DNA of 64,000 nt from a virus (IMGVR_UViG_3300020048_000007:64001-128000); one strand, 5' to 3'; positions 3,801 through 64,000 are shown, numbered from the stretch's first letter. Notes: a model not told the origin generated them from the sequence alone. A program made the numbers and translations.

Positions 3801-5386
3801 AACGATTCAATACCAGCTAGAGTCGCCAAAGTGCCAGCGGTAGGCAATGTAACGCTAGTATTAGCAGTTGAAGTCAGCGTCGTGGTGAAAGCACCAGAAG
3901 TGGTGAGATTTCCACCGATAGTGATCGTTTTCCCAGTATTCGCTATCCCAGTCCCACCGTATTGCCCAGCTATGACAGCCCCAGTCCAAGTACCGGTCAG
4001 TGTGCTGTCTGTGTAAGCATTGACTTTACGAGCACCAGCGACTGAAAAGTAAAAATTAGTATTATCGAACTCGATAGAACCATTCGCTACGGCAGTTGTG
4101 TTAGTGCCTGATGTGAGTATTAATCCGGCGACAGTGGTATTCCCGGCACCTGTGGTAATATACTTATTGCTTAACGACTCAGTTCCAGCTAATGTGGCTA
4201 AAGTACCGGTCGTTGGTAACGTTATGCTAGTATTGGCCGTGGAAGTCAGAGTAGTAGTGAAAGAACCCGAGGTCGTTAAATTACCGCCAATAGTGATTGT
4301 CCTGCCGGTATTCGCGACTCCAGTACCTCCATACTGCCCCGCTATAACATTACCGTTCCAAGTAGTGTTGGTGGAAAATGTTTTATTAGTAAAAGTCTCT
4401 GAACCTGCAAGTGTCGCTAAAGTACCGGCTATCGGTAATGTTATGCTAGTGCCTGCCGTGACTGTTATGGTAGTGTCGAATGAGCCAGAAGTCGTTAAAT
4501 TTCCACCTATTGTGATAGTCTTACCAGTGTTGGCGACTCCAGTGCCGCCATACTGACCTGCTACGACATTACCATTCCACGTCGTGTTAGTCGATAAGGT
4601 TTTATTAGTGAATGTTTCAGAACCGGCAAGTGTTGCTAATGTACCGGTCGTTGGTAATGTGAGTGAAGTATTGGCAGTAGACGTTAAAGTCGTGGTGAAA
4701 GCGCCAGAGGTAGTGAGGTTACCGCCAATCGTAATTGTTTTACCAGTGTTAGCAATCCCCGTACCACCGTATTGCCCCAGCACAATATTCCCATTATAAT
4801 CAACATTGGTCGACAATGTCTTATTAGTAAAAGTCTCTGAACCTGCGAGTGTCGCTAGAGTACCAGTAGTTGGCAGTGTTACGCTAGTATTAGCAGTAGA
4901 AGTTAAAGTCGTGGTAAAGGCACCAGATGTCGTAAGATTACCACCTATCGTTATAGTCTTACCGGTATTTGCGACCCCAGTACCACCATATTGGCCAGAT
5001 ATCAAATTGCCATTGTAGTCTACGTTTGTTGATAATGTCTTGTTAGTGAGTGTCTGTACGTCCGTCAATGTGGCGTAGTTGACGATCTGATTCGCTGGCA
5101 GCGTTACAAAAACGTTTTTCGTGCCTGTGCTGAATGTTACGACAGTGTTGGAGTTACTGCTTTTTAATACTGTTGTTCTTGTGAAAGTCGTTGGAGCACT
5201 TAAAGTTCCTAGACCTATTTCCCACTCTGTTGTACCTGGGTTCTCGATAACGTAGTAGCAGGTATTGCCTACCCCTATGGTGGCGTTAAATGTTTGATAT
5301 CCAGTCGCGGCCCCGGCTAGCGTAATATTAGTTGCGCCTGTAGTCTCGCTAGTTTCTTTTACTCTATCAGCTATTACCAGGGGCAT
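1..5386 (-). CDS. Long Thr/Gly-rich tail fibre / adhesin with C-terminal RCC1-like repeats (3' end outside window)
   Basis: Not in the ORF track, presumably because no stop lies in the window. ATG at 5386 with AAGGAG RBS, MPLVIADRVKETSETTG.... The same frame at positions 2-70 reads DGTLWTWGSNDVGQLGDNTTINK (RCC1-like). The + strand ORFs listed over 891-5018 are antisense shadows. Confidence 0.85.
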   Translation of the reverse strand, partial: MPLVIADRVKETSETTGATNITLAGAATGYQTFNATIGVGNTCYYVIENPGTTEWEIGLGTLSAPTTFTRTTVLKSSNSNTVVTFSTGTKNVFVTLPANQIVNYATLTDVQTLTNKTLSTNVDYNGNLISGQYGGTGVANTGKTITIGGNLTTSGAFTTTLTSTANTSVTLPTTGTLATLAGSETFTNKTLSTNVDYNGNIVLGQYGGTGIANTGKTITIGGNLTTSGAFTTTLTSTANTSLTLPTTGTLATLAGSETFTNKTLSTNTTWNGNVVAGQYGGTGVANTGKTITIGGNLTTSGSFDTTITVTAGTSITLPIAGTLATLAGSETFTNKTFSTNTTWNGNVIAGQYGGTGVANTGRTITIGGNLTTSGSFTTTLTSTANTSITLPTTGTLATLAGTESLSNKYITTGAGNTTVAGLILTSGTNTTAVANGSIEFDNTNFYFSVAGARKVNAYTDSTLTGTWTGAVIAGQYGGTGIANTGKTITIGGNLTTSGAFTTTLTSTANTSVTLPTAGTLATLAGIESFTNKTLSTNTTWNGNVIPGQYGGTGIANTGFTLTMAGNVSHAGAFAQTFTATGTTSVTLPTAGTLATLAGIESFTNKTLSTNTTWNGNVIAGLYGGTGVANTGKTITIGGNLTTSGAFDTTLIATASTSVTLPTAGTLSTLAGSETLTNKTFSTNTTWNGNVITGQYGGTGVANTGKTITIGGNLTTSGAFTTTLTSTANTSVTLPTTGTLATLAGIESLSNKYITTGAGNTTVAGLVLTSGSNTTAVANGSIEFDNTNFYFSVAGARKVNAYTDSTLTGTWSGAVIAGQYGGTGVANTGRTITIGGNLTTSGAFTTTLTSTANTSVTLPTTGTLATLAGIESFTNKTLSTNTTWNGNVIAGLYGGTGVANTGKTITIGGNLTTSGAFDVTLTATAATSVTLPIAGTLATLAGIESFTNKTLSTNTTWNGNVIAGQYGGTGVANTGRTITIGGNLTTSGSFTTTLTSTANTTVTLPVTGTLATLAGTESLSNKYITTGAGNTTVAGLVLTSGSNTTAVANGSIEFDNTNFYFSFAGARKVNAYTDSTLTGTWAGAVIAGQYGGTGVANTGRTITIGGNFTTSGAFATTLTATGTTSVTLPTAGTLATLAGSETLTNKTLSTNVDYNGNIVTGQYGGTGIANTGKTITIGGNLTTSGAFTTTLTATANTSVTLPVTGTLATLAGSETLSNKTLSTNVDYNGNVITGQYGGTGIANTGKTITIGGNLITSGAFATTLTATGTTSITLPTTGTLATLAGSEILTNKTLSTNVDYNGNVISGQYGGTGIANTGKTITIGGNLTTSGAFTTTLTSTANTSITLPTTGTLSTLAGTESLSNKYITTGAGNTTVAGLVLTSGSNTTAVANGSIEFDNTNFYFSVAGARKVNAYLDSAMTGTWTGTVVAGQYGGTGIANTGKTITIGGNLTTSGAFTTTLTSTANTSVTLPTTGTLATLAGIESLSNKTLSDGLGFLSTLGNNFLDLTSGIGIVYGWGQNNSGTLGDGTSVNKSSPVQLITSRTNWSNVASGEQFSAGIKQDGTLWTWGLNNDGQLGDNTIVAKSSPVQTITGGTNWKQVSCGYKHTAAVKTDGTLWTWGFNGAGQLGDNTVVKKSSPIQTIAGSTNWSKVSCGVNHIGAIKTDGTLWSWGLGTHGALGDNTTVSKSSPVQTITGGNTWTEISCGYNSSAAIKTDGTLWAWGYNSTGAVGDNTIISRSSPVQITTGGTNWSKVTKTSGISGLGVESTAAIKTDGTLWTWGSNDVGQLGDNTTINK
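1084..5000 (-). repeat. Nested repeat array: 16 copies of a 73 aa (219 bp) unit in blocks 4-4-3-4-1, separated by four 51 aa (153 bp) spacer modules
   Basis: YGG-motif anchors at 4981,4762,4543,4324 | 3952,3733,3514,3295 | 2923,2704,2485 | 2113,1894,1675,1456 | 1084; spacings are exactly 219 or 372 bp. Confidence 0.9.
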
Positions 5387-5408
5387 AAAATCTCTCCTTA
5401 GGCTAAGA

Positions 5409-5431
5409 TATATTTGTTGCAAGTAAATATA
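5409..5431. promoter_or_regulatory. Back-to-back late-type promoter motifs (CAAATATA on minus, TAAATATA on plus)
   Basis: Sits between the divergent genes 5386(-) and 5486(+); resembles the T4 late promoter TATAAATA. Confidence 0.55.
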
Positions 5432-5485
5432 CGGTACCTAAAAATTATAGTCGCTAATGGCTATAGACACATAATAGGATAGAAT

Positions 5486-5794
5486 ATGTATAACCCAGAA
5501 AAACCGACATTTAACGTCTCCGAACCATTCCTAGGTGTCACGAGCGTACAGCTAAACAGACCTATGGTAGACCTACTAATAAACGTGCTGCAAGACCAAG
5601 AAGGCCAACTAGAAAAAGAAGTATGGGCATTAGTCAGAGCTTTAAACGACCCAGCTGGCTGTAGAGAAATGAGAGCCCAACGCAAACGCCTCATCAGACC
5701 AACAAGACCAAGATACAACACAAGATACAACCAATACGAAGAATACGAACAAGACACAGAGATAGACGAAACACAAGACCAACCAAACGAATAA
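5486..5794 (+). CDS. Hypothetical protein, acidic C-terminus
   Basis: ORF with upstream AGGA and promoter motif, followed by a terminator. Confidence 0.7.
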   Translation: MYNPEKPTFNVSEPFLGVTSVQLNRPMVDLLINVLQDQEGQLEKEVWALVRALNDPAGCREMRAQRKRLIRPTRPRYNTRYNQYEEYEQDTEIDETQDQPNE

Positions 5795-5798
5795 TCAC

Positions 5799-5824
5799 AA
5801 GGCACGGTGAAAACCGTGCCTTTT
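5799..5824 (+). terminator. Intrinsic terminator (possibly bidirectional)
   Basis: AAGGCACGGT-GAAA-ACCGTGCCTT followed by TT, between convergent genes. Confidence 0.8.
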
Positions 5825-6321
5825 CAATAGACCTTACAGTTATCAACTATAAAATCACCGATATTAGTCTTAATAATAACGTCATAAACATCAGACTCAA
5901 GAGCTATCACCTTCACACCATAATGTGCTGAGTGAATATGTTCAACAAGCTTCTTAATCTCACCATCGACAACGATCTGAGAATTACAGACCGGGCAAAT
6001 TAACTGAACAGTTTCCTCCCACAAATCGTCTAATAAAAAAAGAAACTCTAGATATTCATAAAATTTAGCTTTGTAAACCTCATCGTACGAGAAGCATACT
6101 TGGTCCATCACGACAGAAAAGTAATACCTCTCATCATCAAATCGTTTTATTTCGATAGAACCGAGCTTTACAGTATCATCGTTGATAATATGCACACACT
6201 CACCAGAAAGTCTAAAAGGACCATTCTTCCTTGTGCTAAAAGCTTCAGCTATCCTCTTGATGCGTCTGATCTTACCGCCAGTAGCGATACCCAAAACATC
6301 ATACATCATCATTGTCACCAT
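5824..6321 (-). CDS. Hypothetical protein with a possible C2H2-like Zn site
   Basis: CPVC...HIHSAH; start is probably slightly downstream (MMMYDV). Confidence 0.6.
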   Translation of the reverse strand: MVTMMMYDVLGIATGGKIRRIKRIAEAFSTRKNGPFRLSGECVHIINDDTVKLGSIEIKRFDDERYYFSVVMDQVCFSYDEVYKAKFYEYLEFLFLLDDLWEETVQLICPVCNSQIVVDGEIKKLVEHIHSAHYGVKVIALESDVYDVIIKTNIGDFIVDNCKVY

Positions 6322-7204
6322 ATTCCATAAAACGCAAGGACTTCTCTATCTTCCCACAAGCATCAATTAATAACTTGCGAGACTTACTCGATATTTTCTG
6401 CAACACCTTTTTATCCAAAGAGCCTAAAACCTTAACAACATCGGTCGCTTTTTTGTCGGAAGCAGCATCACCTATAAAATCGTCTGGCAAACCATTCTCT
6501 AACCATTGATGTAACCTCTTCCTAAAATCTTTCGCCCTATGGATCATAAACTCACCATCGTCCCTAAGATGGACAAGATATGAATCAGAAAGCTTAAAAT
6601 CGGTATTCTTCTCGATTATCAGACGATATAAGCTCAATTGTATGCTATAATAGTTCAACTCGCAATTATCAAGATCGTTAAATGGTTGAAGAAGCTTCTC
6701 GTAATGGTTATCTATTCGAAATTTACCGGTCTTCCAGTCGAATATGTGCTTTGATTCAGTGCCTTTTATAGTGCATCTAAATATAGCGTCAACTCGACCA
6801 GCGACACCGTATTGTGCATCTCCTACTACGCATTCTTGATACTCAAGTTTAGCTTTTAATTTAGAAGCTAGTCTTTCCCAGACTTTATCAAAAGCGTTCA
6901 TTGCTTCTATGCGGTTGTTTACGGCTCTTGTGATAGGGTCTATTTTATCGACCATTAGGTCTTCTATATATGTGTGCAATCTTGTGCCTCTGTCTCTGCC
7001 CTGTTCTCCTTTCTTTTCCCATTGTTGCAGCACCTCTTCTTGTGTTAACCCATCTCTTTCTGCTACTCTCTTGCTGACTCCTTCTTTGTCGAAGTCTGGT
7101 TTTAATCTTGATACAAGTGTGGTGGCCGAGATGAGGTTTTTATCATCTATTCTGTAGCCGTGGTTTTCAGTGTCTACTATAATGTGTTTGAATGCATTTT
7201 CCAT
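6299..7204 (-). CDS. PD-(D/E)XK (RecB/Cas4-like) phage exonuclease
   Basis: RGTRLHTYIE, AGRVD, DWKT and YxxQLSLY motifs. Confidence 0.8.
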   Translation of the reverse strand: MENAFKHIIVDTENHGYRIDDKNLISATTLVSRLKPDFDKEGVSKRVAERDGLTQEEVLQQWEKKGEQGRDRGTRLHTYIEDLMVDKIDPITRAVNNRIEAMNAFDKVWERLASKLKAKLEYQECVVGDAQYGVAGRVDAIFRCTIKGTESKHIFDWKTGKFRIDNHYEKLLQPFNDLDNCELNYYSIQLSLYRLIIEKNTDFKLSDSYLVHLRDDGEFMIHRAKDFRKRLHQWLENGLPDDFIGDAASDKKATDVVKVLGSLDKKVLQKISSKSRKLLIDACGKIEKSLRFMEYGDNDDV

Positions 7205-9221: not shown

Positions 9222-10742
9222 TCATATCAAGTCATTCCAATTCAGACTACCATAAACATCACCGCCGCCAGCCAAATGTCTCACAGCTAACGTAAGTGTA
9301 TCAGAAGTAGGTGTTTGGTCCCTTCCGATCTGCATATCAAAAATGTAGTCTAAATCCGTGTTAACTGAACCCCTAGCTTGTGTGCTGCTGGTAAAAAACC
9401 CAGATTCCTCAACAACACCACCACTCATTGATGTAGCATTAGCATTATAATCAACATTGCCACCGCTGGAGCTATGGTTAATCCATGAGCCACCGGTTAT
9501 AGTAGCATTGCGAATCAAAGAAAATTCATAGTAAGCACCATTTCCTGTGCCCGAAATATGTATCTGACCAGGTATAACCACCGCATCTTCTCTACCAGTA
9601 GCTAATCTAAGAGAAACAACCGGAGCCCACCCATCAGCAACAGCAGTGCTGGCTATGGCAGTCGTCCTAGTCACTGACCATTGCTTAGTCTTTTGATTAT
9701 ATCCACCTTCTGAAATCGCTGTAGAGCATATTTTTTTCAGTGTAGATGATGAGCCAGTGGTTCCAGTATTCTCAATCTCATATCGTAGTGGCAAGCAGGC
9801 TGTCGTCATGTATGTGGTCAGTTCTATATTATTATGCCTGAAAGTGTGCGCTAATACATATTGGCCATCTACTATGAACCCACATCTAACATTGCCCACC
9901 CCAAGCCATTCTATGTCTATCCAAAATATTTGAGTCTTGTTTATTACCAGGTCAGCTAGAACATCATTATTCCAACTATCCTGCCTAATTCTTCTTGTGA
10001 CGCCCAGACTTTGACTACGTAGCACAAGATAATTGTATTCACCGTCGTTTTCTAAGTATATTCCATTGTTTAGACCGAAGTATCCAACCCGCTGCCTTAA
10101 ATTAGTCTTAGGTGTGTTCATCGCGAAAGTCATGAGTAATAGCAGACTTTTACCGGGCTGGTATGGTATTACTCTTACAGACTCTTGTATCACCTTACTG
10201 CCAGTTGATCCTGTGACGTTTAGATTCACAGCACTCTCTGCGGCGACATAAGTGGCATTGCCACTGCTTGCAGTAACGGTGCTCCATTTGCTATCTTGTT
10301 TATACCTATTCTGGCTGTCGAATATGGTTAGTGGCTGTGATATTCTTTGTCTTCCAAATGAATCAGTAGTTCCAAATGCAGGGGTCGAAATTGCTGTTAT
10401 GCTATTGGTTACTTCTACGGCTATTGGGTCTGTTCCCCCATTTTGGACTATTACTGGGATGGGGTTATTATTATCATTGCTTACTTCTACTAGACCTTCT
10501 ACGGCTATTGGGTCTGTTCCCCCATTTTGGACTATTACTGGGATGGGGTTATTATTATCATTGCTTACTTCTACTAGACCTTCTACGGCTATTGGGTCTG
10601 TTCCCCCATTTTGGACTATTACTGGGATGGGGTTATTATTATCATTGCTTACTTCTACTAGACCTTCTACGGCTATTGGGTTATTGTCATCATTTGCTAT
10701 TTCGACCTCATTCACCACGTTAACATTTCGTAGAAGACTCAT
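9222..10742 (-). CDS. Probable virion structural protein with N-terminal 28 aa tandem repeats
   Basis: FGRQRISQPLTIFDSQNRY and YQPGKS...RQRVGYF domain resembles structural proteins of T4-like aquatic phages (from memory). Confidence 0.65.
   Translation of the reverse strand: MSLLRNVNVVNEVEIANDDNNPIAVEGLVEVSNDNNNPIPVIVQNGGTDPIAVEGLVEVSNDNNNPIPVIVQNGGTDPIAVEGLVEVSNDNNNPIPVIVQNGGTDPIAVEVTNSITAISTPAFGTTDSFGRQRISQPLTIFDSQNRYKQDSKWSTVTASSGNATYVAAESAVNLNVTGSTGSKVIQESVRVIPYQPGKSLLLLMTFAMNTPKTNLRQRVGYFGLNNGIYLENDGEYNYLVLRSQSLGVTRRIRQDSWNNDVLADLVINKTQIFWIDIEWLGVGNVRCGFIVDGQYVLAHTFRHNNIELTTYMTTACLPLRYEIENTGTTGSSSTLKKICSTAISEGGYNQKTKQWSVTRTTAIASTAVADGWAPVVSLRLATGREDAVVIPGQIHISGTGNGAYYEFSLIRNATITGGSWINHSSSGGNVDYNANATSMSGGVVEESGFFTSSTQARGSVNTDLDYIFDMQIGRDQTPTSDTLTLAVRHLAGGGDVYGSLNWNDLI
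10415..10680. repeat. Perfect 84 bp tandem repeat x3 plus a partial copy
   Basis: Copies start at 10415, 10499, 10583 and 10667 (partial); encode IAVEGLVEVSNDNNNPIPVIVQNGGTDP. Confidence 0.95.
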
Positions 10743-15065: not shown

Positions 15066-15556
15066 TTCAAAAGCACAGGGCGATATCCAGTATGTTCAAC
15101 ACATACGTTCACATACCTAAAATCCCTGGCCCCATCACGCATCACATGATTGTGATGTGTATGACCATGGATGTTAAAGCTGAAACGACCAATACAATCA
15201 GGATGAATAGGGATATGTGACATTACGGCTCTCTCATGGACATGCACAGCCCTTATGTCTCTAAAGTATCTGCGATACAGCGATATCCTTTCTGTGTCGT
15301 GATTACCACGAATCAAGACTTTATCGCCATTTAGCTTTTCTAGAATGTGTAGATTCTTGGCTTTTATTGCTACGTCGCCTAGGTGATATACTTTGTCGCA
15401 TGGTCGTACCACACTGTTCCATTGTTCGACCATGAAGTCATCCATCTCTTTGGATGTTTTAAATTCTGGCCTGGCGGCTGAGCCGTCGGCTTTGAGATAT
15501 GTGAGCATTTTCTCATGCCCAAAATGCGTGTCGCTGGTGACGAATATCTGTTTCAT
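15026..15556 (-). CDS. Metallophosphoesterase (phage phosphohydrolase type)
   Basis: SDTHFGH, HLGDV, RGNHD and HGHTH motifs. Confidence 0.9.
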   Translation of the reverse strand: MKQIFVTSDTHFGHEKMLTYLKADGSAARPEFKTSKEMDDFMVEQWNSVVRPCDKVYHLGDVAIKAKNLHILEKLNGDKVLIRGNHDTERISLYRRYFRDIRAVHVHERAVMSHIPIHPDCIGRFSFNIHGHTHHNHVMRDGARDFRYVNVCVEHTGYRPVLLNWVLEEARKGLAK

Positions 15557-17860: not shown

Positions 17861-17861
17861 A

Positions 17862-19097: not shown

Positions 19098-19567
<470 letters not shown>

Positions 19568-19576
19568 GTAGTCTCC

Positions 19577-51124: not shown

Positions 51125-53113
51125 TTATTTATTATTCTTAGGAGCTTTAGTGTAGAAGTAGTCTCTTGGGGTGACAATCGGCTTACCCTGGCTTATAGGA
51201 ATAGCTCCAAGCTGCAACGTATAAGCATCGATAACTCTAGAAGCCACAGTCTCAGGAAGCTCTTCTGGGCTAAGTGCCATCGGCATCAAAGTCATTTGAC
51301 CACCCTTCTCAATAAAGCTCTTCTGGTAATCAATCATAGCGCTATCACCGTACAGCATCGGACCGGTCATGCTGGTGAAATCAATGCTGCCATTGGTAGG
51401 CATCATGTTGCCAGCATCAAGCACAAAACCGTCACTTGTGCCAACAAGCGCTAAAGCTGTGCTCATCACAAGGTCATCGAAGTTGCCAGCGCCGTCTTCT
51501 GCCTCTGTCCTGCCGGTGTCTCTGCCAGACCTATCTCTTTTCCTGACGTAGATCTGCAGCTGTTTATACAATCTCTTGCTGTAGATCTTCCATGTTTCTT
51601 CTGGATTAGCTCGAATACAATCAGTCAAGTACTTGTTTAGAATAGCCTTACTGGCATTGCTAGTGTTATAACCGTAATGCGATACTTTTAACGCTCGTTG
51701 CTTTCTTCTAGTGCCGCTTTGGGGTACAGGTTTATCATTTATGTCTTTTTTCCTCCAAAGCTTGGGGTAGTTCACATCATATCTTAAACTATCAATGACA
51801 ATGTCTCCGCCGTTGTTACGTTCCACAACAGCCACCGCGTTATTATAATAGCGTCCGATTCTGTCGACATATTTAACCAATTCTCTTGGTAGGACACGAG
51901 CCATAAATTCAGCTACTTGTTCCTGCTCCTCCAAGTCGAACACCTCTATTGCGCTATAGTCACGGCCTTTGCCTGTGGAAATATCGACACCCATCACGTA
52001 AGTGTGGGCGCCTTGGCCTGGGTCTACTATCTTGCCATTTATTCGTTTTTCTGGCAGAGCTATAACCGGTTTCTTAAAGATCCAGAGCCCCTGATCTGCG
52101 TCATCAAATTCGAAATCCTGCGCTTCGGATTGGCCTGTGACAGGGTGAATATATACCTGGGTTCCTTTAACTCGTGTCTCTGGGTCTCGAACAGTCGTCG
52201 ATATAAGCGACAGGACTTCTTTATCTAAAACGGTATTACCGCTACCAACAAAGGACGCGAGGATTTCCTGCTCGAATTTCCAGGCTTCGCCTTCTGAGAC
52301 AAGATTTTGATACTGGTGCTCTAACCATGGAGACCAATAAGGGCCATATTTCTTAATTTCATCTGGGTTTTTACATGGGCGAATTCCGTCTATCGGACAG
52401 ATCCTCACATCTTTTTTGCTTAACGGGTCAACATAATTAATGACCCAGTCCATATCCCACCAATTAATAACAATTGGGTTCCAACTATTTAAGCCAGCTT
52501 CCGCATCAACCCATGTATTCCAATACCATCCACCGATACCAGCAGTGGTGCTGATTGCTATAACACTACCACCCATGTTTAATGTGGGAGCTGCTGACGC
52601 CCACATTTCATCCATGCCTTGGATGAACGCTGCTTCGTCTATGATGTTTAACGAGGAGCTGTTAGAACGCATAACGTCAGGATGGCTTGTCAGACTGCTT
52701 ATTCTTGACCCGTTTGGGAAGATCACTTCGTGTTCTGTTTGCTTTACCGGCTTCCAGTTTTCCTTCATCCATTCGGGTAAATGGTTGAATGGGAACATAA
52801 TCTGCTCTCGTAAAAAACCCATTGCATCTTCGTTTCGGCGAGAGACTATAAGAATGGTTTTATTATTTTGAAACATCGCGTACCATAACGCAAAACCACC
52901 AGCGATTTTTGACGCGCCTACTTGTCTACATTTTTTGAAAATGTTAAATCTATTTGTTCTGAAGCATTTTAAAGCATGCTTTTGATAGTTAAAAACATTG
53001 AATGGAATTATACCAGCCATTGGGTGTTTGATCTTGCCGAAGTTTCTAAGAAACCATGAACATGATTTCTGGCACCGCTTGACAGCTTCTAACTGGTGTT
53101 TATCTAGTGCCAT
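51125..53113 (-). CDS. terL: Terminase large subunit (T4 gp17-like)
   Basis: KCRQVGAS (Walker A), IIDEAAF, ISTTAG, GVDISTG, FDDLVMS. Confidence 0.93.
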   Translation of the reverse strand: MALDKHQLEAVKRCQKSCSWFLRNFGKIKHPMAGIIPFNVFNYQKHALKCFRTNRFNIFKKCRQVGASKIAGGFALWYAMFQNNKTILIVSRRNEDAMGFLREQIMFPFNHLPEWMKENWKPVKQTEHEVIFPNGSRISSLTSHPDVMRSNSSSLNIIDEAAFIQGMDEMWASAAPTLNMGGSVIAISTTAGIGGWYWNTWVDAEAGLNSWNPIVINWWDMDWVINYVDPLSKKDVRICPIDGIRPCKNPDEIKKYGPYWSPWLEHQYQNLVSEGEAWKFEQEILASFVGSGNTVLDKEVLSLISTTVRDPETRVKGTQVYIHPVTGQSEAQDFEFDDADQGLWIFKKPVIALPEKRINGKIVDPGQGAHTYVMGVDISTGKGRDYSAIEVFDLEEQEQVAEFMARVLPRELVKYVDRIGRYYNNAVAVVERNNGGDIVIDSLRYDVNYPKLWRKKDINDKPVPQSGTRRKQRALKVSHYGYNTSNASKAILNKYLTDCIRANPEETWKIYSKRLYKQLQIYVRKRDRSGRDTGRTEAEDGAGNFDDLVMSTALALVGTSDGFVLDAGNMMPTNGSIDFTSMTGPMLYGDSAMIDYQKSFIEKGGQMTLMPMALSPEELPETVASRVIDAYTLQLGAIPISQGKPIVTPRDYFYTKAPKNNK

Positions 53114-54102: not shown

Positions 54103-55055
54103 TATCCAAAATCCTCATCATCAACGACATTCTTCCTTTTATCATATTTAAATTCACTATAAGTGCGGTTGAGAGGACTATCTGTAAATTCAAAGCTTCT
54201 CAATTTCACCATCTTGAGAAAATTGGTGACAATAGCCCTAGATAACCCAGATTCGTCTACCAATTTTCCTATTAGCCCGTCGTGGGGCCGATCATCAGTC
54301 ATCACTATTTTTTCTAAAGCATCTAAGATACTCAAATGGTCTGAACTATATTGGGATAATTGTCTGGCTTCTTGTAAAAATCTATCAACGATATTATTAT
54401 TGTTGCGTTGCCTTGTTCCTAGATGATTCATATAGTTATGACCATTCTTTCTGTCTCTGCCTTCTTTTTTAATATATGCTAAGATAACCGTTCTCGAAAT
54501 CTGGGACCACATATTAAAAACTTTACTCATGCCTCTGTAGATTATTGTCTCTGTACCCCCGAAGCATCCTTGTCTTGGTAAGATGTATGGATATGATTCT
54601 AATTTAGTGTTACAGTGCGGGCAGGTTGGATGATTTAATATTACCTGATCTATCTGAATGATACCATATTCTCTAACATCTGGCAAATAAAGAACTGAAT
54701 CGGCTGGTCTATCTGGGTTAAAGCACGTGCGGCAGTGTGGTCTTGATCGGTATTTGTACAGGGTGCGTTCTAGTTGGCACCACGCTGTTTGTAATAGATC
54801 TCCGAATGCCGATTCTTCTTGACCAGGGTATATCGTGTGCAAGCCTTGTTTTCTTATTATCTGCCTTATTAGCTCTGCTGCGTGGCTCATTATACTATCA
54901 CGTAACTCTATCCTTGTGCAGCCTGTCCAGATATATTGGGTCAGGTCCCATTCTACTTTTTCATTTATAAAATATAACTTTCTAAGCGGGGGCTCAACCT
55001 TTGTTGAGGTATCTACTGGTAATTTTCCAACGGTTTCTGATGAGTTCTGTTCCAT
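54102..55055 (-). CDS. gp55-like late sigma factor with Cys4 insertion
   Basis: KLYFINE, DLLQTAW..L.R.L.KY and KVFNMWSQI.R..IL.YIKKE resemble gp55 (HYVNN, DMI.D.., NPFAYFTQI...FLRRI.KE). Confidence 0.65.
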   Translation of the reverse strand: MEQNSSETVGKLPVDTSTKVEPPLRKLYFINEKVEWDLTQYIWTGCTRIELRDSIMSHAAELIRQIIRKQGLHTIYPGQEESAFGDLLQTAWCQLERTLYKYRSRPHCRTCFNPDRPADSVLYLPDVREYGIIQIDQVILNHPTCPHCNTKLESYPYILPRQGCFGGTETIIYRGMSKVFNMWSQISRTVILAYIKKEGRDRKNGHNYMNHLGTRQRNNNNIVDRFLQEARQLSQYSSDHLSILDALEKIVMTDDRPHDGLIGKLVDESGLSRAIVTNFLKMVKLRSFEFTDSPLNRTYSEFKYDKRKNVVDDEDFG

Positions 55056-56589
55056 CCATTAATCCACCAGGTAAGACAATTTTGACGGGATAGCCAGCCT
55101 CAATGATCGTTTGCATCCTTGCTTTTGAGTGCTGATAGAGATATTTATTACATCTGAAGTAGAAGTCGAATATGCGACTTTTACCATACTTGTTTCGGCG
55201 CAAAGCTCTACCTATTTTCTGAAGGAACTCAGATTGAAGCTTTCCACCGGACGCAATAATAAGTGTCTCACACCCGCCAGCAAGATCAAGGCCCCGATTA
55301 ATTATTTTACCACCAATGAGTACCTGCAACTCTCTACGCTCAAAAGAACGCAACGCTTCGTTTCGTTGCTTCAAAGGAGTCTTACCGTAGATGAATTCAG
55401 CTTTGATACCCGCCAGCAGCAAAGTCTCTTTAAGCCTTAACCCCAAAGCCTCTCTATCTACGATAATTAAAGTCCCATCATCATTCACACAATATTTCTT
55501 ACATAAATTTTTAATGATATTTGAATACTTCACACTATTTGTGATATGTTCATCATATGCCTCATCATACGCGGTAGACTCTTGAATACTACCATCAAGA
55601 CCGTAGGCAATCATAAAATATTCACAAGGAATAATCCGACCAAGCTCCGTCAACCTAGCACGAGTCTCCTTAAAAATTATAGACCCTAAATGCTCCTGTA
55701 ACACCAAAGCCTCTACAGGCTTTGACTTATCAAAAGGAGTGCCAGTTACACCATACCTTCTGCGACCCTTAAAATGATACCTAAATAAGGCTTTCCACTG
55801 CTCAGAAGTGGCTTTATCCGCTTCATCCACGATAAGCATCTCAGCTTCATGGACGTACTTCTGTAAAATCTTGGCGTTCTTCTTTCTGGTTTTAAAAGCC
55901 TGTACTTTCTTGTCCCAAATGTCGTATCTCTTTGAATAAGCCTTATCAGTTTCATTATGCTTCTGAATGGGCATCTCAGGGAACTTTGTGGGAGGAGATA
56001 TAGACTGTATAGAACCTACCACTATAAGCTGTCCATTGGGTTTTTTTCCAGCATAAAATAATCCAACTTCGTCAATAACATCACGCAGTTCTAATCTTTG
56101 CTTGATCTGGTCAATGATAACTGTCTGATCTGCCAGGATGATTGTCGGGCACTGTATTGCTTTGCATATTCCGCTTATGACTTCGGTTTTGCCGCCGCCT
56201 GTTGGAACGTCAACAATGCCACATTCGTTTAGGCACGCTTGCTTTATGGCATCTATTTGGTAGTCTTCGAGTTTTATGCCCGGTAAAAAGTCTTCATTAA
56301 TCAGCTCTGGGTCTATAATCTCATAGCCCCAAGCGTCGCGCTTGTCTACGACACGAATAGGAACATTATGCTTCTCACATGCTTTTTCTAAGAATTTTAA
56401 AAGAGGTCTTGCAAACCTCTTCTTAAGACGGTTGTATTTTCTGAATATCCCGTCCCAATTTCCTAGTTGCGTTGGGTCCACATATCTGTTTGGCTTGCTG
56501 ACACTGAATTCTACCCACACCATTTGGTCTTCAGCATCAGTTATATGGGTAAGGTATACATGCTGATTGTCGTGTATTTCGGCTATCAT
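54994..56589 (-). CDS. uvsW: SF2 DNA helicase (UvsW-like)
   Basis: VPTGGGKT, IVDEAD, VTGTP, RGLD, QKIGRALR. Confidence 0.85.
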   Translation of the reverse strand: MIAEIHDNQHVYLTHITDAEDQMVWVEFSVSKPNRYVDPTQLGNWDGIFRKYNRLKKRFARPLLKFLEKACEKHNVPIRVVDKRDAWGYEIIDPELINEDFLPGIKLEDYQIDAIKQACLNECGIVDVPTGGGKTEVISGICKAIQCPTIILADQTVIIDQIKQRLELRDVIDEVGLFYAGKKPNGQLIVVGSIQSISPPTKFPEMPIQKHNETDKAYSKRYDIWDKKVQAFKTRKKNAKILQKYVHEAEMLIVDEADKATSEQWKALFRYHFKGRRRYGVTGTPFDKSKPVEALVLQEHLGSIIFKETRARLTELGRIIPCEYFMIAYGLDGSIQESTAYDEAYDEHITNSVKYSNIIKNLCKKYCVNDDGTLIIVDREALGLRLKETLLLAGIKAEFIYGKTPLKQRNEALRSFERRELQVLIGGKIINRGLDLAGGCETLIIASGGKLQSEFLQKIGRALRRNKYGKSRIFDFYFRCNKYLYQHSKARMQTIIEAGYPVKIVLPGGLMDGTELIRNRWKITSRYLNKG

Positions 56590-57023
56590 AGTGCTTTCGA
56601 ACTTGAATATATGTCTAGTACTTGGCTCACTTTATTACCGTCTTCGCTGACTATTCCTACACGTTTATCATCTCTGAATATAGCGTATCCGCCAACAGGG
56701 TACATCGATAGCCTACTTGATTCAATTGGACTTAAAACTTCCCATTTGCTCTCCGGTCCGAGAGCGACAAGAAGGCTAAAGGTCTCATCTTTGAATCGCT
56801 TTTGTGATTCGTATTTGTCGCAGTTATCCATTGTATTGCTCCTCAGATATTCTATGAGTCTTGTGTGCTCATCCAAGATGACATGGATTTTGCTGAATAG
56901 TCTTTCATGATTCTCTTCTGCGATTAACAGCTCGTTGATCACGTTGTCAAAGTCGTTGCATATTGTTGCTGCTATGGCGGCGATAACTATCATAGCAGCT
57001 ACAATCAGTATGATGTCTGGCAT
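56586..57023 (-). CDS. Membrane-anchored hypothetical protein
   Basis: N-terminal IILIVAAMIVIAAIAA. Confidence 0.6.
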   Translation of the reverse strand: MPDIILIVAAMIVIAAIAATICNDFDNVINELLIAEENHERLFSKIHVILDEHTRLIEYLRSNTMDNCDKYESQKRFKDETFSLLVALGPESKWEVLSPIESSRLSMYPVGGYAIFRDDKRVGIVSEDGNKVSQVLDIYSSSKAL

Positions 57024-57055
57024 TTTGTGTCCTTATCTTTCAAATACTTTGAAGA

Positions 57056-57154
57056 TCATTGTTCTTCGTATGGGAACATTATTATTGCTATTTGGACGGC
57101 TAGTACGAGTATGACTAGCCATCCTAGATATTCGATTGATCTGAATGGGTTCAT
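57056..57154 (-). CDS. Unlisted 32 aa single-TM peptide
   Basis: ATGA-coupled to the upstream stop; MNPFRSIEYLGWLVILVLAVQIAIIMFPYEEQ*. Confidence 0.55.
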   Translation of the reverse strand: MNPFRSIEYLGWLVILVLAVQIAIIMFPYEEQ

Positions 57155-59028
57155 GGGAAGTTTATTTTTATTCTTTTTTCGGAAGGACTGTATTTCATTA
57201 AATCGCCTTCGATTCCGAAGTTCTTTTTGGCCCATTCGTTAATGTTTTTTAAGCCTCTGAGGTATACTGCTTTCATCGACGGGTTGGCAAAATCTGATGG
57301 TTCTGGTGTTTGGTAACTACCGTCTCGTTGTTTAGCAGCTTTCTTTATGAGGTTGTTGAGCTTCGCTTGATCGGGTTTGGCTAGGTCTGTTATATAGTTC
57401 TGTGCTTTTTCAGCGAAGTTTTGCTTTTTGGTGTCTGATGATTCTGTGTCTAATTGTATTGGCTTTTCTGGAGCTGCTGGTGGCTTTGGTGCTGGTGGCT
57501 TTGGTGCTGGTGGCTTTGGTGCTGGTGGCTTTGGTGCTGGTGCTGCTGGTTCTTGAGCAGTCGGTTCAGGCTCAGGCTTTGATTTATCAGCTGGGGCTAC
57601 CGGAGGATTTGGAACATAGTATTTCTTCGTACGGTGCAGAAAAGCCTGTAGTGTGTATAAATCCTCAAATTGGTTGCTTATTGACTCGCTAGAAGCTTCT
57701 GAATTAGCACGCCTAAAATCCTGAATCATAAAATAGCGTGGGGGACCTTCCCTCAGGCGTGCGATAGGTGATTCGGCACGCCCCATCGGATATCCGTAGC
57801 CAATCTTATTATGCATGCGTCCATGCTCGTAATAGTAGTTCACTAACGGAATCCCGAGATAACTCAATGGAGTATAGCCAACACTCTCCAACCACTCTAC
57901 GCTTTCTGACGGTATAGCTGATAGTTGGATCTTCCCACCAGAGGTCTGCTTTAAGCTTTTACCGTACTGTGTATTATCGTATACCTCTTCTTCTGATTTA
58001 ACATTGATATCGATCGCTTTACCTTGAGAAATCTTTTGCTTTAGCTCATCCCGTGCTTCTGAGAGACTTCCGGTGATGTCGTCTTTTTGATATTCTGGTA
58101 TATCACTGAATTCGTCTGGATCTTGGGTAGCTGAGTCTATTTTATCAGACAATTGTTGTGCTGCCGGTTCTTCTTGATCAGTCTGTCCTGCCATGGAAGG
58201 CATAGCAACAGGGTCAATGGGCTCGTCTATTGCTGGCTCATCTTCTGCTGGCTCATCTTCTGCTGGTGGTTCATCGCTTCTTGTTGGCTTATCGTCTATT
58301 GTTGGCTCATCGTCTATTGTTGGCTCATCGTCTATTGTTGGCTCATCATCTGCTGGCGGCTCATCGCCTACCGGTGGCTCATCAGCAGAAGGACCATCCC
58401 AAAAACCATTTGATTCATCATCAGATGGTCTATCTCCTGAGCCAGTTGTATCATCCGGTGATTGAGAAGAGTCAGGCTGAACCGGAGATCCCTGTTGCTC
58501 AGGTGTCTCAGGTGTCTCAGGTGTCTCAGGTGTCTCAGGTGTCTCAGGTGTCTCAGGTGTCTCAGCCTGTGGTTTACTGAGCTTACCCTTTATGTAAGAA
58601 AAAACATTATCAATTTGCTCTGGTCTACCTGCAGTTAGAGTACCATCTTTAAGCTTCTTGGCCAAATACTCCTTTAAAATCTGCTCTCTCTCTTTAGAAA
58701 TCTTGCCAGCCAACGGTTTTTGCTGCTGATCAGGGTCATTCAGATCCCAAACCCAAGCCTTACGCACATTAAATAACACACCAGAGATCTGGAATTTCTT
58801 ATCAGCCAATTTCTTAACATAAACTCTAGCGGATATACCACCAACGAATTTTGATTCTGCTGGCAATCTAGTCCCGACATCAGAAAAAGTGAAGACAGTC
58901 TGATCACCTTCTTGTACAATGTGATCATAAAACTTTGTCTCTTCATTTATAGGAATGTCGCCTATAAACAAGTTCTCAGAGAACGTCAGAATAATATCGA
59001 TGGCGGAGTGCAGATTCGAAAGCTTCAT
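57151..59028 (-). CDS. Pro/Glu/Asp-rich protein with several VNTRs; candidate head-internal protein
   Basis: Start MKLSNLH at 59028 (GAGGG RBS, TAAATATA at 59047-59054). Confidence 0.65.
   Translation of the reverse strand: MKLSNLHSAIDIILTFSENLFIGDIPINEETKFYDHIVQEGDQTVFTFSDVGTRLPAESKFVGGISARVYVKKLADKKFQISGVLFNVRKAWVWDLNDPDQQQKPLAGKISKEREQILKEYLAKKLKDGTLTAGRPEQIDNVFSYIKGKLSKPQAETPETPETPETPETPETPETPEQQGSPVQPDSSQSPDDTTGSGDRPSDDESNGFWDGPSADEPPVGDEPPADDEPTIDDEPTIDDEPTIDDKPTRSDEPPAEDEPAEDEPAIDEPIDPVAMPSMAGQTDQEEPAAQQLSDKIDSATQDPDEFSDIPEYQKDDITGSLSEARDELKQKISQGKAIDINVKSEEEVYDNTQYGKSLKQTSGGKIQLSAIPSESVEWLESVGYTPLSYLGIPLVNYYYEHGRMHNKIGYGYPMGRAESPIARLREGPPRYFMIQDFRRANSEASSESISNQFEDLYTLQAFLHRTKKYYVPNPPVAPADKSKPEPEPTAQEPAAPAPKPPAPKPPAPKPPAPKPPAAPEKPIQLDTESSDTKKQNFAEKAQNYITDLAKPDQAKLNNLIKKAAKQRDGSYQTPEPSDFANPSMKAVYLRGLKNINEWAKKNFGIEGDLMKYSPSEKRIKINFP
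57479..57538. repeat. Perfect 15 bp x4 (APKPP)
   Basis: GGTGGCTTTGGTGCT x4. Confidence 0.9.
58499..58561. repeat. Perfect 9 bp x7 (ETP)
   Basis: TCAGGTGTC x7. Confidence 0.95.
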
Positions 59029-60002: not shown

Positions 60003-62246
60003 TCAGACAGCACAAGAATCGCTATCGCAAAACTTAGATCCCTCTTCCTTACCATAGTAAGTAGAAAAATCTAAATCTTTCAATTGAGCATTGTAGTCCA
60101 AAACCTCTTGCTCAGAACACGGCTCATACGGAGCCTGAGCATAACCATGATTAGAATGAGGCAAAAAGCTAATGCTCTTCAACTGATCCTCATAGACCTC
60201 TAAAACACTAGCTATATCCTTAGCCTCATCAGCCTTAAACTTGACTGTCACAGACACTTGATTGTCTGCCCAATATCTCTGATAATCCACAGTATTTGCC
60301 ACCTGCTCCCAAATAGAAACCTCATTAGTAGGCTTCACTCTAGGATCAGACACAGCAAACTTAATGACCACAGTATTCACAGGATCAGTCACAGATGGCT
60401 CAACATGATAACCAGCATCCTTAAGAATCTGCACCAAAGGACTGTCGCTCTTCACACGAACACGACGCCAATAATGCTGAGCCTCAGGATAATGAATACC
60501 AGGAGTACAGCCAGTCAGCAAACTCACAGTGCCAGAAGGCTTCACACTCGTAATCTTGATGCTCTGCGGAATGCACAACCACTTGCTATAAACCTTATCC
60601 CACTGCTTAATAACGTTATAGCCCTCATCACAGAACTTGTTAAGCACTTCACGACGACCGAACTGCGCAAAAGCCTGAACAATACCACTCTGACTAAGAC
60701 CAATGCGGCGATTACGAAGCATAACCGCATTAGTGCGAGCAGAGTGAGTAGGAAGAAGAGTCACAGTCTTGGCGTAGAGGAAAGCGAACTTCAAAGTGCG
60801 CTTATAATCTTCATCGTCTTGATGCAAATTGGGGAACGACTCCACCAAACAGCAAAGCTCTGAGTCCTCTAACGATTGTTCTGCGCATGGATTACTCCCC
60901 ACTACCTCCCCGTCGATACCCTCTTTATAACCATCAATCATCCTACCAAAATTCCTACAATTTTCAAGCCATAGGAAGCCAGGCTCGCCATTAGTGGCAA
61001 TGTCCTTCTCATATTGCTTGTAAGGCATGCCGACCTTAGCAAAAACACTGTTATTGCTCGCCCAACGATGATTATTGAGCGCCGACCACTGTATAGTGCC
61101 TTGAGTAAGCAATTCGATTTCTTCTGTGGTAAGACTAGAAGTATCGAAATCGGAAACGTGCAAGTAAGCCACAGAATTGGTGGCTCTACCCCAAGCCATA
61201 CCCTCTTTTTCTTGGATCATTGACTTAATATTGTCTGGCATGAAAGCATAAGGATTTTTCAATGATGAGTACTCCTCATCACCAGCTTCTCCAAAAGCTA
61301 TCTGCGCTGTTCTACGAACATTGCCCGCCACAACGCACTTCCCGATATAATTCATAAGATCAACAATATCACCACTGCTTAATGTCTTGCCAATCTTCCT
61401 ATCCAAGTGGCTTCTAAACATTTGATGCATATCAGATAGAATGTTAGCTCCAGCAGCAGTACCACCAAACCCGCCGATTTGTGAACCAGCTGGTCTGATC
61501 TTCTCATAATTAAAGACCACTTCACCATTCCCAGCTTTTTTGGTGTACGAATGGAGCAAGGTCCTAAGTGAGTCAACCCAGCCTTCCCGGCTATCGTGAA
61601 CTTCGTATTCGACATATTTCGCTGAGTTTGGCCGTTGAATCTCTACTTGACCAGCACCTTTGGTGTCGAAACCGATACCGACTCCCAGCATACTCATATC
61701 CATCATGAAGCAGTACGGTTCGGCTGGGTCTGTATGGCGTTTCATGTCTGTGGATGTCATCCCACAGTTGTTCAAGGCGGCTGAACCTCTGGCGAACATG
61801 AAATCTGTGCCCATCATCCACAGACCGCGACCAGGTGGAAGGAATTTGAATGACCAAATTCTTTCGAACATTTCTTGGGCACTATCTTGTGCTCGCTCAT
61901 AGTCCCATGGGATGTGTATTGAGAGGCAGTGTCGTCGCTGGATTTCGTAGCATCCTTCTACTACTCTTTTTGCTACGTCTAGGAAGGATTCTTTCCCGCC
62001 TTCTGCTTTATCTCTGGAGTATGTGCGGTAGAATACGAATTCACCTAATCCGTTGAATCCGAAGTTTGGTTTCTTGTTATTATATTGTTCTAAAAATGTG
62101 CTTGTGAGCTTGAATGGTTTGCATTCTTTGTGGGCTGAACCAAAGTATGTTTCACCTATGTTGACTATTTTAGGCGTTGGTTTTAGTAGTTTACTGCGGG
62201 TGCTTGATTTTGATTCTGGCATGTTGGGTTCAACCACTATCGACAT
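60003..62246 (-). CDS. nrdJ: Class II (adenosylcobalamin-dependent) ribonucleotide reductase
   Basis: RTYSR, FLPPGRGLW, ALNNC, NPCAEQSL...CCLVE, TSVKPSGTVS. Confidence 0.93.
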   Translation of the reverse strand: MSIVVEPNMPESKSSTRSKLLKPTPKIVNIGETYFGSAHKECKPFKLTSTFLEQYNNKKPNFGFNGLGEFVFYRTYSRDKAEGGKESFLDVAKRVVEGCYEIQRRHCLSIHIPWDYERAQDSAQEMFERIWSFKFLPPGRGLWMMGTDFMFARGSAALNNCGMTSTDMKRHTDPAEPYCFMMDMSMLGVGIGFDTKGAGQVEIQRPNSAKYVEYEVHDSREGWVDSLRTLLHSYTKKAGNGEVVFNYEKIRPAGSQIGGFGGTAAGANILSDMHQMFRSHLDRKIGKTLSSGDIVDLMNYIGKCVVAGNVRRTAQIAFGEAGDEEYSSLKNPYAFMPDNIKSMIQEKEGMAWGRATNSVAYLHVSDFDTSSLTTEEIELLTQGTIQWSALNNHRWASNNSVFAKVGMPYKQYEKDIATNGEPGFLWLENCRNFGRMIDGYKEGIDGEVVGSNPCAEQSLEDSELCCLVESFPNLHQDDEDYKRTLKFAFLYAKTVTLLPTHSARTNAVMLRNRRIGLSQSGIVQAFAQFGRREVLNKFCDEGYNVIKQWDKVYSKWLCIPQSIKITSVKPSGTVSLLTGCTPGIHYPEAQHYWRRVRVKSDSPLVQILKDAGYHVEPSVTDPVNTVVIKFAVSDPRVKPTNEVSIWEQVANTVDYQRYWADNQVSVTVKFKADEAKDIASVLEVYEDQLKSISFLPHSNHGYAQAPYEPCSEQEVLDYNAQLKDLDFSTYYGKEEGSKFCDSDSCAV

Positions 62247-62397: not shown

Positions 62398-63105
62398 TCA
62401 TCCCTCGAGCGCTCTGATCACTACCTCTGAGCTATTATATAGCTCGAATATCCGTCTCCGACACAAATACATCGCAGCATCCGTAGGAAGCATGTCTCGC
62501 TCATGCGGGTGAGTGATCTCTAATGTATTCAAAATCGAAATAGCCGACTTATTTATGGATAGGAATTCTAATGATATTTTCTTCGCAAAAAATAGGGACG
62601 TCAAATTTGTAAAAGCCTGTTTAGTTGGCCTCTTTAAGAGATAGACCCTAACATCCGTAAGATTCAATGAATCCAAAAATTCAATAGTCGACTCAAGTCT
62701 TTTAATCATATGAATACTATTATCTGCTTCAGTCTTCAGTTTCTTATAACATATGGTCATCATATTTTGTTGGTGAAGGACTGCTAAACCTTTATTAATC
62801 ACTCCTAGTTCTTTAGCATGATTTATCGCGATATCGATAAATCTTTGGCATGTGTCTGGGTCGAAGTCCCATTCTTTGAATTTTTTGGTTATTGATTTTA
62901 TGAATCTCCATTGGTATGTCTTTGTGTGGTCTTTTGCATTTGGCAGCTTTAGCTTTATGCCTTGCCGTAGATATGATTCGAAACAGTATTGCCATACTTC
63001 CTGTTCTGACAGAACAATTTCGCATATCATTGGGCACCACCTATGTCTGAAAATCCTGAAGAATCGACAGTTCAACAACACACTGGCATTTTTGATGAAA
63101 ATCAT
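62398..63105 (-). CDS. Hypothetical protein
   Basis: ORF track; start probably MICEIV. Confidence 0.55.
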   Translation of the reverse strand: MIFIKNASVLLNCRFFRIFRHRWCPMICEIVLSEQEVWQYCFESYLRQGIKLKLPNAKDHTKTYQWRFIKSITKKFKEWDFDPDTCQRFIDIAINHAKELGVINKGLAVLHQQNMMTICYKKLKTEADNSIHMIKRLESTIEFLDSLNLTDVRVYLLKRPTKQAFTNLTSLFFAKKISLEFLSINKSAISILNTLEITHPHERDMLPTDAAMYLCRRRIFELYNSSEVVIRALEG

Positions 63106-63327
63106 CCAGATGTCTTAGAGGTATTTGGCAGCATGTGCGAACAAGTTAACATCAACACATCAATAGCCATTATACAAGACCCAACAGATGGCAAACCTAA
63201 GGTTTTTATACGAGGCCATCTATATGACGTCGGGCATTTAGTGACAAAAGTCGCAAACCAGATCAAAAAAGAGCTGATGCAGGGATTATCACTTCTCGTA
63301 ATAGTAATTGGTCTCTCTGGAATCTAA
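63043..63327 (+). CDS. Small hypothetical protein
   Basis: ORF track; 3' end overlaps the convergent baseplate gene. Confidence 0.45.
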   Translation: MSENPEESTVQQHTGIFDENHPDVLEVFGSMCEQVNINTSIAIIQDPTDGKPKVFIRGHLYDVGHLVTKVANQIKKELMQGLSLLVIVIGLSGI

Positions 63328-64000
63328 AACCACGATCTCATTGGTGCCAATTCTATTAACAGCAGTAGGACTACTTTCCGAAGCTATGGTAGGCTCCGAC
63401 AAGATATTATTGGCCGGACTAAACACATCTACATACAACACACCGTCCACACTCTGAATAGCCTCAACCAAGCTACTAATATAAAATGACTGGCCCATCT
63501 CCCAATTAGCGATATCGAAATACGCAGTAATCATCGCCTCTGTTTTTTCCTTCACTACAGACGCCTCAGCGCCTCTATTTAAAATGACATTAGCTTTCAA
63601 AGACACTTTTTTCATGCTACCATCATGAATAACAACAGTATCAGTCATCACATTCAGAGTATTCACATAGGTCTCAAGACCCTTCTTAAGACCAGCACTG
63701 GGGCTTGATAAGCCATTTGAACCCAGAGCCAGAATATAAAGATCAACAATGCTAGCTCTCAAACCAATCCTGGCTCCAGCAACAGCTTTAGCAACCGTTC
63801 CAAAAGCAGGATGTGAAAAAGACTTGGCAGCTTGAGCGTAATCAGCAGCTGTCACGATAGATCTTTGTAAAGCATAGTCTTTTGGTGCCCTTCTCTTTGC
63901 GTCCGCTAAACTCTCGCGATCAGTACCACCGACAGCAGCGGTAATGTTCCTGAATCTTACGGATACCGGCGCGCTAGCTGGAGGATTAGCTCTCATCTGC
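63289..64000 (-). CDS. Baseplate wedge protein (T4 gp6 / baseplate J-like), C-terminal part
   Basis: GGTDRESLADAKRRAP...IVTAADY; FDIANWEMGQSFYISSL; 5' end outside window. Confidence 0.8.
   Translation of the reverse strand, partial: QMRANPPASAPVSVRFRNITAAVGGTDRESLADAKRRAPKDYALQRSIVTAADYAQAAKSFSHPAFGTVAKAVAGARIGLRASIVDLYILALGSNGLSSPSAGLKKGLETYVNTLNVMTDTVVIHDGSMKKVSLKANVILNRGAEASVVKEKTEAMITAYFDIANWEMGQSFYISSLVEAIQSVDGVLYVDVFSPANNILSEPTIASESSPTAVNRIGTNEIVVLDSRETNYYYEK

Follow-up and report, generated by a model that had tools for sequence, protein, structure and literature searches.

The stretch of DNA analysed here, which we call the window, is 64,000 nucleotides long and comprises bases 64001-128000 of IMGVR_UViG_3300020048_000007, a 231,672-base IMG/VR virus record that is estimated to be 64% complete and is without any N; the virus is a freshwater T4-like giant phage. 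Its + strand alternates between patches rich in G+T (keto) and patches rich in A+C (amino), with sharp drops in G+T placed at gene junctions and gradual rises inside genes. We suggest, with a probability of roughly 0.45, that the pattern reflects recurrent exposure of one strand beside these junctions, which leaves an imprint of C>T together with A>G. We infer both the single-strand exposure and its source, and the pattern may not be mutational at all.

The patches had been pointed out by a sequence-only reading from counts made by hand, all of which we reproduced: G+T of 12/60, 14/60, 46/60 and 45/60 on the four lines it quoted, wobble G/T of 16/20 at 15721-15780, and wobble A/C at 15/16 non-Trp codons at 26762-26818. 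Each patch that it listed has the polarity claimed for it, but the list missed the strongest G+T patch, at 32.0-34.2 kb (major capsid gene). In the window, G+T per 500 nt ranges from 0.36 to 0.67. At four-fold degenerate sites the skew is not lost but is strongest, the keto share per gene running from 0.17 to 0.87; genome-wide, the heterogeneity of this per-gene share gives a chi-square of 2103 with 240 df. As a measure of patchiness we use the variance ratio, the observed over the binomial variance of consecutive 30-site chunks of four-fold sites. For keto content it is 3.9x binomial in window positions 5000-64000 and 3.1x genome-wide, whereas purine/pyrimidine gives 1.85 and G+C 1.26. G+T versus A+C is thus the most variable axis, and GC skew and TA skew are correlated (r=0.41, p=2e-22).

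Across genes, T at four-fold sites tracks T over C (r=0.74) and G over A (r=0.69) at two-fold sites, and between the two patch classes 9/9 two-fold amino acids move by 0.28-0.37 while 8/8 four-fold boxes move alike. The shift is also seen outside synonymous third positions: from one patch class to the other, first-position T in Leu CTR/TTR codons goes from 0.40 to 0.69, the share of ATA among Ile codons from 0.51 to 0.30, the AGG share from 0.16 to 0.56, and the usage of amino acids with keto-rich codons from 0.174 to 0.220. Within genes too, codon positions 1 and 2 track position 3, and in 72 intergenic spacers the skew correlates with that of the DNA on either side (r=0.66, p=2e-10). Because the shift appears where tRNA decoding has no role (Leu first positions, ATA, AGG, amino acids and spacers), the bias is a nucleotide-level strand asymmetry. 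This agrees with two earlier claims, that the axis is the deamination axis, with T over C and G over A raised together on one strand, and that gene-level codon bias fails to explain the skew.

The sign of the skew does not follow the coding strand; it changes along genes. The four-fold composition of the + strand is the same in + and − genes (A.375/.383, T.256/.256), and the coding-strand keto average is 0.40 for + genes and 0.54 for − genes. Site autocorrelation on the + strand decays over ~0.5-1.5 kb and is alike for pairs within a gene, pairs in different genes of the same strand, and pairs in genes of opposite strand. When the comparison is restricted to confident genes, the correlation between neighbours on opposite strands is weaker yet persists (near halves, r=0.41, p=0.015); the same-strand value is 0.35 and that within genes 0.56. 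The earlier view that the skew is independent of gene orientation therefore largely holds, but some of the orientation calls made with it are unsafe. Since any stop codon requires both T and A, the extreme tracts that lack A or lack T are free of stop codons on both strands and produce long spurious antisense open reading frames (ORFs). These include 5461-5805(−), where the real gene is probably 5486-5794(+); 19192-19818(+), where it is probably 19577-20182(−); and 30712-31254(+), where it is probably 30733-31239(−). Overall, + genes are A-rich at four-fold sites, and in this record and the giant-phage relatives examined (G006-G019) the four-fold A/T skew, expressed in coding terms, is opposite in + and − genes. 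Because this skew follows the DNA strand here and the coding strand in T4, it suggests that forks in this giant-phage group may travel in a fixed direction over long distances, as opposed to T4-like recombination-driven replication.

Over the 232 kb we count 28 sharp drops from G+T to A+C, more than the 13 sharp rises (p=0.028). A gene boundary is found within 100 nt of 18 of the 28 drops, compared with 25% of random points (p=1.6e-5), and of only 1 of the 13 sharp rises; rises, gradual ones included, occur inside genes. Switches of strand polarity, 28 drops and 13 rises with flips inside genes, are thus not confined to an origin and a terminus. AAATATA, a late-promoter-like motif, is not over-represented overall (20 copies versus 18 expected) but is strongly placed, in that 23 of the 75 copies in the genome lie 5-120 nt upstream of a start on the same strand, where 4.5 are expected. 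At 21 of these 23 promoter-placed copies there is a drop, from 0.58 upstream to 0.38-0.46 downstream (Wilcoxon p=1.7e-6), and the profiles around AAATATA drops fade over 400-800 nt. Intragenic copies show no general drop (mean 0.00, n=43); among them only the copy at genome position 32589 drops (-0.31), no more than chance would allow. No drop is seen at convergent junctions. The sequence-only reading had described sharp switches that fade outward, some at divergent AAATATA motifs, and both features are present, with divergent pairs at 5409-5431 and 23609-23633. It had also named the tracking of gene boundaries as an outcome that would refute it, and the sharp switches do follow boundaries. 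Among genes of at least 600 nt, coding-strand keto rises from 5' to 3' in 93 of 128, with 29 significantly positive and 5 significantly negative. Because a ramp through zero looks the same on either strand, it cannot be assigned to gene direction, and only its phase relative to the junctions is informative.

The skew depends on lineage. At loci flanking the portal gene, compared across ~60 related phages, the variance ratio is mostly 0.8-1.6 but reaches 3.1-4.3 in the window clade (G001-G003) and the G005 lineage. For whole records it is 3.1 here, 3.5 in G001, 3.7 in G010, 1.9-2.6 in six others, 1.4 in G019 and 1.2 in G009, and the T4 control gives 1.2-1.8. The skew is strong in the window clade, G005 and G010, graded in other relatives, and near-absent in G009 and T4. 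Where it is strong, the local pattern recurs at orthologous positions when disjoint codons are compared: r=0.53 (p=9e-8) for G005, at 58% protein identity, 0.45 for G003 and 0.52 for L017. Unskewed lineages show no such recurrence at orthologous positions. The idea of recurring loci is thus upheld among diverged relatives, but only those that are also skewed. A gene for a 1088-residue protein has the same gradient in orthologues at 62-64% identity. The A+C wobble of the capsid gene is likewise lineage-dependent (0.20-0.32 versus 0.45-0.67); the gene, 32063-33649(−), has a G+C of 0.55 and is strongly C-ending here and in G003, G005 and L017, whereas its codon usage is unbiased in many relatives of similar protein identity.

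Several patches show the pattern in detail. The + strand is A+C-rich at 5461-6500 (four-fold keto 0.15-0.33), a patch that covers the probable + gene 5486-5794 together with the 3'-terminal part of a − operon, and the divergent AAATATA pair at 5409-5431 sits at the sharp drop beside it (d=-0.44). A G+T-rich patch, the 5'-terminal part of the − gene 6299-7204, follows at 6750-7204; its four-fold keto of 0.62-0.71 falls to 0.36 at the sharp drop that closes it, at the divergent junction 7204/7230. The − gene 9222-10742 holds a full ramp by itself, with coding keto of 0.22 in its 5' third and 0.70 in its 3' third, beside a sharp drop at 10742/10758. The clearest orientation-independent block is the long G+T-rich patch at 15250-19097, which takes in the + gene 15649-17352 and the flanking − genes (four-fold keto on the + strand 0.57-0.88). 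The − gene for a stand-alone DnaE core (21913-23592) flips internally, its + strand being A+C-rich at 22.0-23.0 kb and G+T-rich at 23.25-23.6 kb; in coding terms it ramps from 0.52 to 0.84, and the divergent AAATATA pair at 23609-23633 adjoins it. An A+C-rich patch crosses the divergent junction between − genes at 25381-26093 and + genes at 26195-27445 (keto on the + strand 0.12-0.37), with a copy of AAATATA at 26158, and the + genes at 28768-29972 are also A+C-rich, with four-fold keto (k4) of 0.24-0.26.

The region 32063-34250(−), containing the gp23-like capsid gene and a neighbour, is G+T-rich on the + strand, its coding strand being A+C-rich and C-ending (k4 0.30, four-fold C (C4) 0.48, local G+C 0.55). 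A sharp drop at the junction 34412-34505 (d=-0.47) leads into the A+C-rich patch 34505-36000(−), where coding keto reaches 0.87-1.0 at the 3' end. The 5' part of the 1088-residue − gene, 41000-42739, is G+T-rich (four-fold keto 0.52-0.70) and ends in a sharp drop at the junction 42739-42799 (d=-0.42), followed by the A+C-rich 3' two-thirds of the gp20-like portal gene at 42799-44200(−), which ramps from 0.55 to 0.79 in coding terms. Several − genes are G+T-rich at 56600-58400 (four-fold keto 0.53-0.79). The steepest ramp belongs to the ribonucleotide reductase gene, 60003-62246(−), with r=0.44 and thirds going from 0.33 to 0.85; its + strand is A+C-rich at 60.0-60.9 kb and G+T-rich at 61.7-62.25 kb, with a sharp drop at 62246 (d=-0.44).

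We take the patches to be an amino-to-keto asymmetry in which C>T and A>G affect the same strand, lying over a genome-wide asymmetry of the replication type. Hydrolytic deamination acts on precisely these amino bases, C and A, and makes them pair as keto bases. The sign varies over ~0.5-2 kb and is anchored at gene junctions, many of them with the AAATATA motif, and on either side the strand that runs 5' to 3' towards the junction is the keto-rich one. As the most likely mechanism, we suggest that this strand is repeatedly left single-stranded at the junction and hence deaminated. Behind a fork pausing at promoter complexes, the exposed strand could be the template of the lagging strand; ahead of an uncoupled fork, it could be that of the leading strand. 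It may also, as the earlier reading proposed, be a 3' tail left by 5' resection at breaks. Three other sources of exposure were considered and set aside by reasoning from polarity. Fixed Okazaki priming sites, which the earlier reading had offered as many fixed priming sites, would give a polarity opposite to that observed, and the same derivation holds for strand displacement from nicks and for promoter R-loops.

To examine recent substitutions, we aligned this record with both G001 and G002, the three being 3-5% apart, and polarised singleton differences by majority. The combination of C>T and A>G that is typical of mitochondria is evident in composition, and in current rates only in part. 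On the + strand, G>A and A>G are patch-specific: G>A affects 19% of G sites in A+C patches and 8% in G+T patches, and A>G runs at 8% and 11.5%, respectively. These rates speak for an asymmetry that is still in operation. In the keto-rich 3' parts of genes, the non-template strand still has an elevated rate of C>T. The dense tracts of substitution are recombination imports and not hypermutation, because all substitution types are present in them; no hypermutation bursts were seen.

A number of observations weigh against recurrent strand exposure. C>T on the + strand is not raised in G+T patches, and C>T and T>C are alike between patches. With recombinant tracts removed, keto gains outnumber losses by 67 to 25 in A+C patches (p=1e-5), and losses outnumber gains by 104 to 72 in G+T patches (p=0.02), so that net change erodes the skew in all three lineages; by our own estimates these ratios are too large for regression to the mean, parallel hits or rooting. 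Long-term recurrence combined with short-term erosion is unlike a neutral equilibrium, which predicts balance, and this departure leaves room for selection, biased conversion or episodic events. Strand-coordinated mutation clusters were looked for in the dense substitution tracts and not seen. A comparison of junction types (tandem with a gap, tight tandem, divergent and convergent) does not tell a site-centred from a gene-centred model, operon-internal genes also show the 5' to 3' rise, and the dip after a promoter averages ~2x the bump before it. In G010, finally, sharp drops are not in excess (17, versus 20 rises).

An alternative, which we consider rather unlikely, is that selection or a fixation bias, for example strand-biased gene conversion, acts on the nucleotide composition of the DNA or its transcripts. 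On this view, transcription units or cistrons would be held A+C-rich at their starts, and thus unable to pair with themselves there, and G+U-rich in their distal parts, with mutation eroding the arrangement constantly. Conservation at orthologous positions despite saturated synonymous sites, together with erosion in three lineages, is the classical sign of such a bias, and the rise along most genes, operon-internal ones included, and the excess of the post-promoter dip over the pre-promoter bump agree with it. Convergent junctions, however, lack the drop that gene-level ramps would lead one to expect. The axis coincides exactly with that of deamination, and we know of no reason why selection should favour it; it is the DNA strand, not the transcript, that the genome-wide component and the correlation between neighbours follow; substitution rates are themselves patch-dependent; and we know of no benefit that only some lineages would need.

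It is quite improbable that the patches are a mosaic of horizontally exchanged cassettes from differently skewed or inverted donor genomes. The close relatives are indeed highly mosaic, with segments at 66-98% identity, the many small indels in 17-32 kb include strongly skewed cassettes (17677-18529, the DnaE piece and the + block 26088-29974), and the gene 34505-35434 is an imported allele in G001. The ramps, however, run through core genes (portal, capsid, the 1088-residue gene, ribonucleotide reductase and terminase) and the sign flips inside genes. Inverting the genome-wide bias, from 0.44 to 0.56, cannot yield values of 0.1-0.9, imported and resident alleles are skewed alike, the pattern recurs at orthologous positions in lineages of 58% protein identity, and G+C is nearly even (1.26x). 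Translational selection of codon usage, by expression class or by tRNA supply with A/C-ending codons read by Watson-Crick pairing, is very improbable. A uniform preference for A/C-ending codons would suit a minimal tRNA set, and the window has no tRNA genes; the capsid gene is strongly C-ending, with a T share of 0.13 at two-fold pyrimidine-ending codons besides its high C4. Yet the shift is uniform over codon families and is found also at Leu first positions, at ATA, in amino-acid content, in intergenic DNA and in the first two codon positions; + and − genes differ according to the DNA strand; and both extremes occur inside one late operon. Codon selection is refuted as the main cause, although it may contribute to the capsid-gene patch. 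The chance that the patches are an artefact of assembly or sequencing is negligible; the same patches are found in contigs of independent metagenomes (G001, G002 and G003, variance ratio 3.1-3.5), which rules out an origin in assembly, and the stretch is present in runs of 17 studies.

If strand exposure is the cause, a further factor may set its amplitude in each lineage. In at least G006, G011 and G012 (L118 9079-10535), a conserved slot holds a UDG-family gene and a partner encoding 244 residues, and in other UDG-bearing relatives the UDG gene adjoins the same flanking genes. Both are cleanly absent here, where the syntenic slot is empty at genome position 172202-172225, outside the window. 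No UDG-family gene was found in the complete genome G010 or in G008. This genome and G010, both without UDG, have the highest variance ratios (3.1 and 3.7), but the ratio is only 1.9 in G008, which also lacks UDG, and genomes with the gene go as high as 2.1-2.6; a one-sided rank test by hand gives p about 0.14. We therefore treat absence of the phage UDG gene as a weak lead. PurZ, and with it 2-aminoadenine DNA, was rejected as the lineage factor, as purZ homologues are also present in relatives without patchiness. Neither a C5 cytosine methylase (PF00145) nor a dCMP/cytidine deaminase (PF00383) was found in this record. A bolder proposal, which we think unlikely, is that a fixed programme exposes single strands at junctions that bear promoters, either because forks pause or uncouple there or because site-specific breaks are resected, and is written into the genome as a deamination sawtooth whose amplitude would be set by lineage-specific repair or DNA chemistry, such as loss of the phage UDG-family gene.

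The − strand carries ~72% of the ORFs. In the window we identified the gp23-like major capsid gene (32063-33649(−), Pfam Gp23 2.8e-77), the gp20-like portal gene (42799-44781(−), Pfam Portal_T4 1.2e-68), the large terminase (51125-53113(−)), an SF2 helicase (54994-56589(−)), the ribonucleotide reductase, which is of class II (Pfam RNR_Alpha 4e-31), and the stand-alone DnaE core (Pfam DNA_pol3_alpha 1.2e-39). A Mom-like/GNAT protein of 520 residues is encoded at 37118-38680(−) and combines a Mom-family/GNAT domain with a restriction-endonuclease-like domain; taken with the purZ gene, which lies elsewhere in the genome, this hints that the phage DNA contains modified purines. The giant fibre gene, 2-5422(−), is rich in internal repeats, and fibre-gene repeats cross-match at 72-86% identity between distant places in relatives (G001 51-59 kb). 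A megablast search against the phage collection returned no close record.

The region 17-32 kb is hyper-plastic in comparison with G001 (L106-L109), G002 and G003, neighbouring segments being 66% to 98% identical. G001 lacks 17677-18529, 19800-21238, 21959-23863 (the stand-alone DnaE piece) and 24121-25349, and a six-gene + block, 26088-29974, is missing in G003. For the gene 34505-35434(−), the G001 protein is only 76% identical inside flanks of 97-100%; the G001 allele is an import that nonetheless has the same extreme wobble skew (0.84 versus 0.87).

Strand skews are normally a genome-scale property used for finding origins, whereas here they are kilobase-scale and of very large amplitude. 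A literature search found no description of such a pattern in phages, and no phage description of a kilobase, junction-anchored sawtooth is known. The skew recurs at the same places in diverged lineages and yet is absent from related phages; it alters protein composition and gives rise to false ORFs by which gene callers are misled. With a mutational origin it would offer a sequence-only read-out of one-strand exposure during infection by uncultured giant phages, and if the exposure programme is real, the architecture of replication and transcription in uncultured phages would be readable in the same way. Under selection, it would point to a constraint, so far unrecognised, on how far phage DNA or transcripts can vary in amino/keto content. 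In both cases, inferences about codon usage, horizontal transfer or selection in these genomes must first have a model of the skew.

Among known systems, bacterial chromosomes have a replication-associated strand asymmetry in which the leading strand is G- and T-rich, ascribed to deamination of the more exposed template (PMC3269016, PMC3269012). The phage resembles them in the keto excess on one strand at four-fold sites whatever the gene orientation, and in a genome-wide component whose A/T skew has opposite sign in + and − genes. It differs in that bacteria switch once at the origin and once at the terminus, whereas here the sign switches dozens of times in every 100 kb, both within genes and at junctions, and amplitudes span 0.1-0.9. 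The deamination gradient of the mitochondrial heavy strand was reportedly set out by Reyes in 1998 and by Faith and Pollock in 2003. In vertebrate mitochondrial DNA, C>T and A>G on the heavy strand rise with the time spent single-stranded (PMC4182315). The phage shares with this gradient the same two transitions, the maximum at four-fold sites, linear-looking ramps and an effect on amino-acid content. Mitochondria, however, have one genome-long gradient and one replication mechanism, while the phage has many short sign-changing ramps and recent substitutions that are not at equilibrium.

T4, which belongs to the same phage group, shows a transcription-associated asymmetry, and the raised non-template C>T in the keto-rich 3' parts of genes here is like it. 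The coding strand of T4 (L116, L117) is T-rich on either strand, however, whereas the 5' parts here are of opposite sign, and T4, at a variance of 1.2-1.8x, lacks the ramps and sharp switches that are present here. In kataegis, strand-coordinated clusters at resected double-strand breaks result from a single enzymatic burst. The geometry that it predicts is the same, with C>T on the 3'-ended strand on each side of a site and polarity switching at the site, but no coordinated clusters were found here. Promoters, finally, are associated with GC skew and R-loops (PMC3787257), and the phage resembles them in having a strand asymmetry anchored at transcription starts; R-loop exposure of the non-template strand would make the coding strand keto-rich just past the promoter, whereas in this phage it is amino-rich there.

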